From Candidatus Bathyarchaeia archaeon (GTDB taxonomy: Archaea; Thermoproteota; Bathyarchaeia; 40CM-2-53-6): a DNA stretch of 64,000 nt. Both the position numbers and the translations under genes were made by a program. Position 1 is the first letter of the stretch; each line of letters starts with the position of its first letter. The notes beneath the pieces are model-generated. The model did no database searches, had not been told where the DNA came from, and saw nothing but the letters and a program-made list of their open reading frames with translations. The stretch is from positions 256,001 to 320,000 of the forward strand of contig JBEKFP010000001.1 of NCBI GenBank assembly GCA_050013255.1, written 5' to 3'. Positions 35,268 through 54,174 of this stretch are shown in pieces.

Positions 35268-35457
35268 TGGCGGGCCCGCCGGGATTTGAACCCGGGACCC
35301 TTCCCCAAGAAGGCTTCTCGGCCGGTTTCTTTTCGGGTGGCTTCCCATGGGTTCTAAAAGCCCAGAGGTAAAAGCATCACCGACACCCGCTCGGCGTCTC
35401 CGATGCTCTACCTTTTCAGGATCCAATTTCGAAAGGATCTGACTGAGCTACGGGCCC
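35268..35457 (-). tRNA. tRNA-Lys(UUU) with four BHB introns (35414-35440, 35376-35399, 35339-35368, 35301-35332)
   Basis: Spliced product GGGCCCG TA GCTC AGTCAGGTA GAGC A TCGGG CTTTTAA CCCGA GGGTC CCGGG TTCAAAT CCCGG CGGGCCC G CCA; each intron bounded by a BHB motif. Confidence 0.88.
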
Positions 35458-35509
35458 CGAAGGCTCACAGCACGGACCACTATCAAAAGCGTTTCGCACG
35501 TATGAAGTT

Positions 35510-41510: not shown

Positions 41511-41664
41511 TGGTCCCGCGGGCCGGATTTGAACCAGCGACGCTCCGGTTTCCGTTGTTAGCCTAGTAGGCTGACATGGGTACGCCTTGGGCGCACACCT
41601 ACAGCGTCTCCGTCGCTCCGAATAAGAGAGACTCGGAAGCTCTACCAGGCTGAGCTACCGCGGG
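41511..41664 (-). tRNA. tRNA-Tyr(GUA) with two BHB introns (41606-41633 at 30/31; 41550-41598 at 37/38)
   Basis: C1-G72 acceptor CCCGCGG/CCGCGGG; spliced anticodon arm TCCGG CTGTAGA CCGGA; encoded CCA. Confidence 0.9.
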
Positions 41665-42955: not shown

Positions 42956-43070
42956 TGGCGGGCCCGCGGGGATTCGAACCCCGGATCCCAGGCTTTCACC
43001 GCATCCGCTCCGAAGGCTTACACGAATCTGACGCATCTCTGTGTCTTAATCCTGGCTCGACTACGGGCCC
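42956..43070 (-). tRNA. tRNA-Arg(UCG) with two BHB introns (43018-43038 at 29/30; 42995-43009 at 37/38)
   Basis: Spliced anticodon arm CAGGC CTTCGGA GCCTG; BHB ACAC-AG^A..GTGT-AA^G. Confidence 0.9.
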
Positions 43071-45906: not shown

Positions 45907-46470
45907 ATGGAGAACAACCCCAGCGCAGCACCTCAAACTCCCGCGCAAGTCCAAGAAAAACCACCGTTTACCCCTTGGATCGCGGTGTCCGGCCCGGGTT
46001 TGGTATACCTACCCTACAAATCTGAACTCATGGAGCTTAGGGACCGAGGATTCGGCGACCTCCGGAACGACAGGCTTGTCCTTTCTCCGTACGAATCATT
46101 CTACCTTCTAGAGAAACAGAAGATTCGAGTGTTTGCCAAGGATGCAAGCCGGGAGTTGGAGCTTCGAGACTTAGTCCAGAAGTATTCAGTTGGCAAACCC
46201 GAGATCTGGATCAAGTACTTGGTCTACCGTGACCTACGGGACCGTGGGTACATAGTCCGCGAGTCCACTAAAGCCTTCGACTTTGACATTTACGGAAAAG
46301 GGCCGCTGAGGCGTTTAATCTCAATCGTTTACGAAGGTGGCGAAGCGAGCCTTCAGAAATTAAGTAAACTGCTTCAATATTCTGACAAGGAGAAGAAGGA
46401 ATTGATACTAGCCGTTGTTGACAGGCGGACCGACATAGTGTACTATACGTTGAGTTCGTTGAATGTCTAG
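45907..46470 (+). CDS. tRNA splicing endonuclease, structural (non-catalytic beta-type) subunit
   Basis: LSPYESFYLLE, KYLVYRDLRDRGYIVR, LILAVVD..DIVYY; lacks the catalytic His after the DFxxY motif. Confidence 0.82.
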   Translation: MENNPSAAPQTPAQVQEKPPFTPWIAVSGPGLVYLPYKSELMELRDRGFGDLRNDRLVLSPYESFYLLEKQKIRVFAKDASRELELRDLVQKYSVGKPEIWIKYLVYRDLRDRGYIVRESTKAFDFDIYGKGPLRRLISIVYEGGEASLQKLSKLLQYSDKEKKELILAVVDRRTDIVYYTLSSLNV

Positions 46471-54024: not shown

Positions 54025-54174
54025 TGGCGGGCCCGCGGGGATTTGAACCCCGGACTTCTGTACCAGTGCTGGGCTGGTTCTACAGCTTTTTCCGGGTGTT
54101 CCTTAGGGGGTTCGGCAACAAATTCCGCTTTCTCAGCGGAGCCTGCCGCTCTATCCAACCTGAGCTACGGGCCC
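54025..54174 (-). tRNA. tRNA-Arg(CCU) with three introns (54111-54142 at 30/31; 54088-54103 at 37/38; 54056-54079 at 45/46)
   Basis: Spliced arm GCAGC CCCCTAA GCTGT AGGTC; perfect BHB CTGT-AG^A-ACCAG..CTGGT-ACAG-AA^G; C at position 33. Confidence 0.8.

Follow-up and report, generated by a model that had tools for sequence, protein, structure and literature searches.

The evidence supports a real tRNA-Lys(UUU) gene with four separate bulge-helix-bulge (BHB) introns in the window, the 64,000-nucleotide stretch of DNA analysed here, which belongs to a Bathyarchaeia genome labelled G000 with the three contigs C1, C2 and C3. Four lines of evidence speak for the four-intron reading: the sequence itself, covariation, naturally intron-less counterparts, and a genome that encodes matching enzymes. 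The locus is very probably a functional, single-copy tRNA-Lys(UUU) gene of peat and soil Bathyarchaeia with four protein-spliced introns, for which stepwise processing is proposed. The features are listed in Table 1.

Table 1. Features of the tRNA-Lys(UUU) locus and a nearby endonuclease-like gene (window coordinates)
Feature	Position	Strand	Length	Description
tRNA-Lys(UUU) gene	35268..35457	-	190 nt	five exons, four introns, encoded CCA
Candidate BRE/TATA-like box	35481..35495	-		GAAAC GCTTTTGATA; ~24-37 nt upstream of mature 5' end
Exon 1	35441..35457	-	17 nt	acceptor 5' strand, U8, A9, D-stem 5' strand, D-loop to C17
Intron 1	35414..35440	-	27 nt	D-loop 17/17a; TCAG-TC^A ... CTGA-AA^A; inner helix GATCC/GGATC
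Exon 2	35400..35413	-	14 nt	D-loop remainder, D-stem 3' strand, position 26, anticodon stem 27-30
Intron 2	35376..35399	-	24 nt	30/31; CATC-GG^A ... GGTG-AT^G; inner helix 5-6 bp, outer helix 4 bp
Exon 3 (micro-exon)	35369..35375	-	7 nt	G31 and anticodon-loop 32-37 with anticodon UUU; invariant
Intron 3	35339..35368	-	30 nt	canonical 37/38; CTTT-TA^C ... GAAG-CC^A
Exon 4 (micro-exon)	35333..35338	-	6 nt	A38 and anticodon stem 3' strand 39-43
Intron 4	35301..35332	-	32 nt	43/44; relaxed BHB ACCC-GA^A ... GGGG-AA^G; inner helix AAGAA/TTCTT
Exon 5	35268..35300	-	33 nt	variable loop GGGTC, T-arm, acceptor 3' strand, discriminator G, encoded CCA
Second, non-catalytic EndA-like subunit gene	45907..46470	+	187 aa	PF01974 + PF02778

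The introns account for 113 of the 190 nt, and the joined exons form a 77-nt sequence with CCA that is called tRNA-Lys(ttt) by ARAGORN. All 21 stem pairs of the mature cloverleaf are formed, with zero stem mismatches, in a structure that has a 7-bp acceptor stem, a 4-bp D-stem, a 9-nt D-loop, a 5-bp anticodon stem and a 5-nt variable loop. The conserved bases U8, A14, G18G19, U33, a purine at position 37, the T-loop TTCAAAT and the discriminator G are present, and the anticodon UUU sits in the 7-nt loop CUUUUAA. An encoded CCA follows 43 of the 52 tRNA-like anchors in the G000 genome. An earlier, sequence-only reading of the window had given the same intron total and a canonical cloverleaf after four removals; both are borne out, its nine segment boundaries are all right, and the BHB strings that it quoted are all present in the sequence.

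The BHB register is the same at each intron: the four exon bases before the 5' bulge pair with the four intron bases before the 3' bulge. There are two bulges per intron, of 3 nt each, and the predicted cut falls after the second base. The central helix (H) has four of four pairs in introns 1-3. In intron 4, it has three of four pairs in G000 and most congeners owing to an A38.G mismatch, which makes the motif a relaxed one, and all four pairs in five aligned species that carry T for the last G. The inner helices (h') of introns 1-4 measure 5, 6, 2 (plus 4 past one mismatch) and 5 bp, and the outer helices (h) 1, 4, 1 and 3 bp, so that a flanking helix of at least 2 bp is present at all four introns. 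The boundaries of introns 1 and 4 are ambiguous by 1-2 nt in the sequence, with the product unchanged.

Comparison of 19 full-length orthologues provides a measure of how far these helices have been maintained. The register is kept for all four introns in every one of the 19 aligned species. Helix cells are paired in 95.7% of cases, compared with 36-52% when the partners are slid by 1-3 columns. Double compensatory changes are found at seven pairs, against 0-3 in the slid controls, and none of 500 shuffles reaches the observed values. The helix of intron 1 shows a compensatory change from A-U to G-C, and four of the five pairs in the inner helix of intron 2 show double compensatory changes. 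Energy-based folding gives a more mixed picture: the central helix of intron 3 is weak and is missing from the fold of its isolated hairpin, the local minimum-energy fold of intron 2 has a different register, and the whole precursor reaches its minimum (-86.6 kcal/mol) in a structure other than the four-hairpin one (-51.7 kcal/mol). The whole-precursor fold was not counted as evidence either way.

Two other classes of interrupted gene were considered and rejected. Self-splicing group I or II introns are excluded, as the segments are only 24-32 nt long and a ribozyme core spans hundreds of nt; a scan of the window with Rfam gave no match to an intron family. A split or permuted tRNA gene is likewise excluded, with all exons colinear on one strand within 190 nt and no trans-splicing needed.

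The intron arrangement was also examined with our own SPLITS-like solver, a type of check that the sequence-only reading had suggested. Starting from anchored acceptor ends, the solver lists possible BHB-like introns and rates the cloverleaf left after splicing; the 187 nt between those ends were its only input, and it returned four introns. In its first pass, introns 2-4 were placed at exactly the boundaries proposed earlier, and all four were recovered once BHB quality was scored. The first-pass alternative for intron 1 (15/40 instead of 17/44) is weaker and is ruled out by intron-less orthologues. The cloverleaf score of 28.5 lies ∼4.4 SD above that of 60 interior shuffles (mean 20.4 ± 1.8, maximum 24.5), none of which reached it. 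The solver is permissive, with ∼200 BHB-like candidates within the 187 nt, and solutions scoring 24.5 or less are not distinguishable from shuffles.

The expectation that annotators would miss or misassign the gene holds for ARAGORN, which makes no call in default mode and in intron mode reports a tRNA-Lys(ctt) with one 119-nt intron. The latter call was rejected: its 'anticodon' lies inside intron 1, which is absent from nine congeners. The Rfam scan of the window at the gathering threshold also leaves the gene uncalled; a sensitive search of the genome gives an RF00005 match spanning the gene at 31.8 bits.

A neighboring gene has its best matches in Candidatus Bathyarchaeia or Bathyarchaeota metagenome-assembled genomes (MAGs) from SPRUCE peat and Danish soils, so the host is a member of the Bathyarchaeia and belongs to neither Thermoproteales nor Asgard. 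The tRNA-Lys(UUU) gene is present in all 22 congeneric species genomes searched. The sequencing runs that contain the locus number at least 20, all from peat or wetland, and no RNA run was listed for it. In the alignment of orthologues, almost all exon columns are invariant, including every column of exon 1 save one, and the intron loops vary in sequence and length. The sole change in an exon stem is compensatory (27:43, T-A to C-G, in G001). Every within-gene variant in four peat and wetland metagenome assemblies falls in an intron loop, and no joined, intron-less form of the locus was found in these DNA assemblies. A box similar to the candidate BRE/TATA-like element occurs at the same distance in 19 of 19 orthologous loci while the remaining flank varies; we infer that it is the promoter.

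It is extremely improbable that the four-intron structure is a product of chance or assembly, as would be the case for a chimeric contig or for a permissive motif search in unrelated sequence such as overlapping open reading frames (ORFs). The number of BHB-like candidates, the shuffle scores of up to 24.5 and the presence of ORFs of 70 and 193 aa overlapping the region lend this idea what weight it has. The score of the real gene stands far above the shuffles, however, and the gene recurs in 21 species assemblies as well as in 20 or more independent runs from peat or wetland. Moreover, indels among the orthologues are mostly not multiples of three, and conservation tracks the exon/intron map and not a reading frame.

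Natural presence and absence of the introns provides boundary checks that are independent of the BHB motif. Within genus g1, 12 species including G000 carry all four introns, and nine species lack intron 1 and carry introns 2-4. All four are present at the same sites in G033, a member of another family of the order. Intron 2 alone is absent from G034, introns 1 and 2 are both absent from G025, and intron 4 alone is absent from G040, from G037 and from G023 of the same family but another genus, the last two having been assigned by hand. Each absence is exact. Removal of intron 1 (24-27 nt) in the nine congeners and G025 leaves a normal 9-nt D-loop, intron 2 is missing at the predicted junction, and the relatives without intron 4 have the 5-nt variable loop of the predicted splice product. 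The canonical intron 3 is the only intron found in every relative examined. The exon 2-3-4-5 junction sequence is contiguous in 36 public metagenomic contigs, 27 of which are called as uninterrupted tRNA-Lys(ttt) by ARAGORN, and the uninterrupted homologues, from other metagenomic archaea, match the predicted mature tRNA except in the D-loop, at the covarying 27:43 pair and at T-loop position 59.

These exact absences bear on the suggestion that only three of the segments are true introns and that one, most plausibly intron 1 or 4, is kept in the mature tRNA as an expansion, or that boundaries are shifted by 1-2 nt. Such a reading draws on the three of four central pairs of intron 4, for which an alternative register (CCCG/TGGG) can be drawn by eye, on the ambiguous boundaries of introns 1 and 4, which yield the same product, and on an Asgard preprint according to which annotators routinely leave D-arm inserts inside 'mature' tRNAs. 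In contrast, the motif of intron 1 is a textbook H(4)-B(3)-h'(5) that includes a compensatory change, and this intron has been deleted exactly several times; the alternative register of intron 4 would produce a 7-nt variable loop that is seen in no uninterrupted homologue. Fewer than four introns, or shifted boundaries, is thus an improbable outcome, and four introns with the boundaries of Table 1 is the preferred reading.

A tree of a single syntenic upstream gene from 14 taxa requires at least 3-4 changes in the state of intron 1, and species with and without it are sisters in two cases, G018 (with) and G021 (without), and G008 (with) and G005 (without), each with support of 100/99. The D-loop intron is present at the same site in five other genera, represented by G023 of the same family and by G033, G034, G037 and G040 of four other families; hence repeated exact loss is the simpler reading, as far as a single-gene tree can tell. 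The presence of all four introns in G033 means that the four-intron state is not peculiar to the G000 species. All four introns probably predate the genus, with precise losses recurring in different lineages.

Related sequences were noted elsewhere among the relatives. In G026, from a different family, a tRNA-Met(CAT) gene (C21:11500-11960, minus strand) has a D-loop intron that shares the site of Lys intron 1 and almost matches it at the ends (AGATCC...GGATCCTGAAA), and a second intron at 30/31, which suggests that tRNA genes whose D-arms are identical share introns or copy them from one another. Apparent paralogues in three relatives proved not to be Lys(CUU) genes; they are 5'-truncated copies of the Lys(UUU) gene (G018:C2:471163-471596, G020:C7:48575-49015 and G011:C4:150323-150739). 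They span the 3' end of exon 2 and introns 2-4 through to CCA; those in G020 and G011 lie 1-2 kb from the intact gene, and that in G018 is degenerate. Integration at the tRNA gene may have left the truncated copies behind, or they may stem from partial duplication.

The dependence of the host on this gene can be judged from its codon usage. In long ORFs, AAA makes up 10,810 of 24,135 lysine codons (∼45%), and so a UUU tRNA is indispensable. The locus is the only gene with a TTT anticodon found in G000. The sequence-only reading had raised the prospect of an intron-less tRNA-Lys(UUU) elsewhere in the genome; a search by the permissive solver and BLAST of G000, a MAG with an estimated contamination of 8.55%, found no other TTT-anticodon candidate or similar sequence. 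A decaying or non-functional pseudogene, with AAA read by another gene that is unassembled or unrecognised, is conceivable because G000 is a MAG in three contigs, the solver census recovered no more than roughly half of the tRNA genes expected, and truncated, partly degenerate copies do exist in three relatives. We regard it as very unlikely. The exons are invariant or covarying over at least 21 species in several families while the introns drift, the stems contain no mismatches, the promoter-like box is conserved, and no second TTT-anticodon candidate is present in a genome estimated to be 100% complete. The truncated copies display what decay looks like, and the Lys(UUU) gene is unlike them.

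The tRNA genes of G000 are extensively interrupted. Two other genes are resolved by the solver into four BHB introns with 0-1 stem mismatches, tRNA-Pro(GGG) (C3:122293-122469, plus strand, solver score 27.5) and tRNA-Pro(CGG) (C1:1387439-1387611, plus strand, score 26.5), both outside the window, so Lys(UUU) is not the only four-intron tRNA gene of this genome. Leu(CAG), with a score of 24.5, and Glu(CTC), with 25.0, were not counted as confirmed. Among the 23 genes scoring 25.5 or more, 22 are interrupted and 44 introns are present in total, giving ∼1.9 per gene, a rough lower bound since the remaining genes are probably the most fragmented.

The Lys(CUU) gene (C1:855328-855465, plus strand, outside the window) has approximately three introns, including ones at 30/31 and in the T-stem at 51/52. 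Its 30/31 intron lies where Lys(UUU) has intron 2; in the 4-bp outer helix, G22 pairs with C34 in Lys(CUU) and with U34 in Lys(UUU). A 229-nt candidate tRNA-Trp(CCA) (C2:632656-632884, plus strand, outside the window; acceptor GGGGCCG/CGGCCCC) shows the right ends at the acceptor and T-arm and a CCA anticodon context; it also carries an intron in the T-loop and several other inserts, and the solver returned no clean cloverleaf for it. Three further genes lie on the minus strand of the window. The tRNA-like gene at 54025-54174 (150 nt) has the acceptor stem and 5' end of Lys(UUU) (GGGCCCGTAGCTCAG...) and an encoded CCA; it is reported as Leu(tag) with a 57-nt intron by ARAGORN and as a poor Arg(CCT) by the solver. 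The gene at 41514-41664 is a Tyr(GTA) with two introns and a score of 28.0, miscalled as Val(aac) by ARAGORN, and that at 42956-43070 is an interrupted class II tRNA gene, called Leu(aag) by ARAGORN.

Removal of archaeal tRNA introns of this kind would depend on the endonuclease EndA and the ligase RtcB. G000 has two genes with EndA domains. The catalytic subunit, of 190 aa, is encoded on contig C2 (171513-172085) and matches the catalytic chain of A. pernix (3p1z_B) and the EndA chain of S. tokodaii (2cv8_A) with E values of 1e-38 to 1e-37. It keeps the Tyr/His/Lys residues, and its K43 and K45 align to K44 and R46 of the crenarchaea-specific loop (CSL) of the A. pernix enzyme (APE). Experimental work has demonstrated that the CSL and its lysine enable the enzyme to cut introns in the D-loop and at non-canonical positions (PMC3241643). 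In the second subunit, both the catalytic His and the entire CSL are missing, and this protein is predicted to be the structural partner of the catalytic subunit. Its gene lies ∼10 kb from the four-intron Lys(UUU) gene, with the catalytic subunit on another contig. RtcB is also encoded (C1:110968-113778, minus strand, outside the window); the match is split by ∼1.4 kb inside one 1039-aa open frame, which suggests that the protein contains an intein. Taken as a set, these genes point to a crenarchaeal-type two-subunit EndA with a broad-specificity loop, predicted to cut non-canonical sites, together with RtcB.

Splicing and its order can be inferred from the predicted structures. Transcription from the gene's own BRE/TATA-like promoter would probably yield a 190-nt precursor with CCA already encoded. 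Each intron would form a local BHB hairpin with an intron-intron inner helix, the two-subunit EndA would be expected to cleave each of the eight sites, after which the exons would be ligated by RtcB. The earlier reading had argued that splicing is probably ordered because the BHB motifs overlap exon stems. This does not apply to the four H + h' cores, which are independent local hairpins that can coexist and are the same whichever other introns are present; hence no strict splicing order is required. The argument does apply to the outer helices, which depend on neighboring introns and are mutually exclusive. The 4-bp outer helix of intron 2 pairs positions 21-24 with 32-35, the same bases that form the central helix of intron 3. 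For intron 3, the outer helix spans 1 bp as long as intron 2 is present and extends to 5 bp after its removal, and in full it needs positions 39-43, of which 39-41 are engaged in the central helix of intron 4. The 3-bp outer helix of intron 4 uses the last three bases of intron 3 and is lost once intron 3 is gone.

The size of the internal exons imposes a further constraint. If both flanks of a 6- or 7-nt exon were cut at once, that exon would be released, for which reason a stepwise cut-and-ligate pathway is proposed. Together, the micro-exons and the mutually exclusive outer helices argue for stepwise processing with intron 3 most likely the last to be removed. One hypothetical order is the removal of introns 1, 2 and 4, followed by that of the canonical intron 3 in a complete anticodon stem.

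The published archaeal maximum is three introns per tRNA gene, a figure still stated in the tRNAscan-SE 2.0 paper and reviews (PMC8450103, PMC4033280), and the Lys(UUU) gene exceeds it. The view that four introns go beyond what has been described, as the sequence-only reading stated, was correct for the Thermoproteales-era literature and is now out of date. Supplementary Data 4 of a 2024 study of Asgard archaea from wetlands (PMC11291895) contains columns for an 'intron 4', and the Lys TTT gene of Atabeyarchaeia-1 is listed there with four tRNAscan introns, three of which are supported by R2DT. An October 2026 preprint describes up to five intervening sequences per Asgard tRNA gene, with a mean of 2.2 in three Asgard families. 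The Lys(UUU) gene is notable for its intron count, its micro-exons and its lineage, and four introns are no longer a record. A literature search for tRNA introns in Bathyarchaeota or Bathyarchaeia found no relevant account.

With the other four-intron genes of G000, the locus extends extreme tRNA fragmentation beyond the hyperthermophilic Thermoproteales and the Asgard archaea. A practical consequence is that standard annotation will under-call the tRNAs of abundant peat and sediment archaea and lower tRNA-based quality metrics for MAGs. The clean presence/absence series of introns 1, 2 and 4 in one order provides a natural data set on the loss of BHB introns, and the micro-exons raise the question of how the endonuclease/ligase pair avoids losing them. 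A broader picture can be offered tentatively, as one that we consider possible but doubtful: the peat and soil Bathyarchaeia order would be a third hot spot of tRNA introns, apart from the Thermoproteales and Asgard families, with approximately two or more introns per tRNA gene, several genes having four to five; the outer-helix interlock would force stepwise splicing such that the 6-7-nt micro-exons are never released; and the repeated D-loop intron losses would occur through frequent recombination with reverse-transcribed spliced tRNA.

Multiply interrupted tRNA genes are known in diverse systems. In the red alga Cyanidioschyzon merolae, a eukaryote with multi-intron nuclear tRNA genes, a tRNA-Ile(UAU) with three introns has been described (PMC3728597, PMC9602550). 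Split and tri-split tRNAs (Nanoarchaeum equitans, Caldivirga maquilingensis) and permuted tRNAs rely on the same EndA/ligase chemistry at BHB-like motifs and show that very small pieces are possible; unlike these, the Lys(UUU) gene consists of five colinear exons on one strand within 190 nt, presumably in one transcript. The multi-intron tRNA genes of Thermoproteales such as Pyrobaculum, Thermofilum and Caldivirga (Sugahara 2007/2008 and Fujishima 2010, via PMC4033280 and PMC8450103) are likewise colinear and carry short introns with BHB or relaxed-BHB motifs, some at the canonical site and others elsewhere. Their hosts also have a two-subunit EndA containing the crenarchaea-specific loop, and similar introns recur in more than one tRNA gene. 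In Thermoproteales, however, the maximum is three introns per gene and the richest genome has ∼1.5 per gene, whereas the Lys(UUU) gene has four and the 23 genes of G000 have a rough mean of ∼1.9; the Thermoproteales are also hyperthermophilic, and the host of G000 is a mesophilic peat Bathyarchaeia. Very few tRNA genes of Asgard archaea are free of introns, many genes being interrupted in the D-arm at sites overlooked by annotators, and counts per gene reach four or five; the wetland-soil habitat is similar as well. Asgard archaea belong to a different phylum from the Bathyarchaeia, which fall in the TACK group (Thermoproteota in GTDB).
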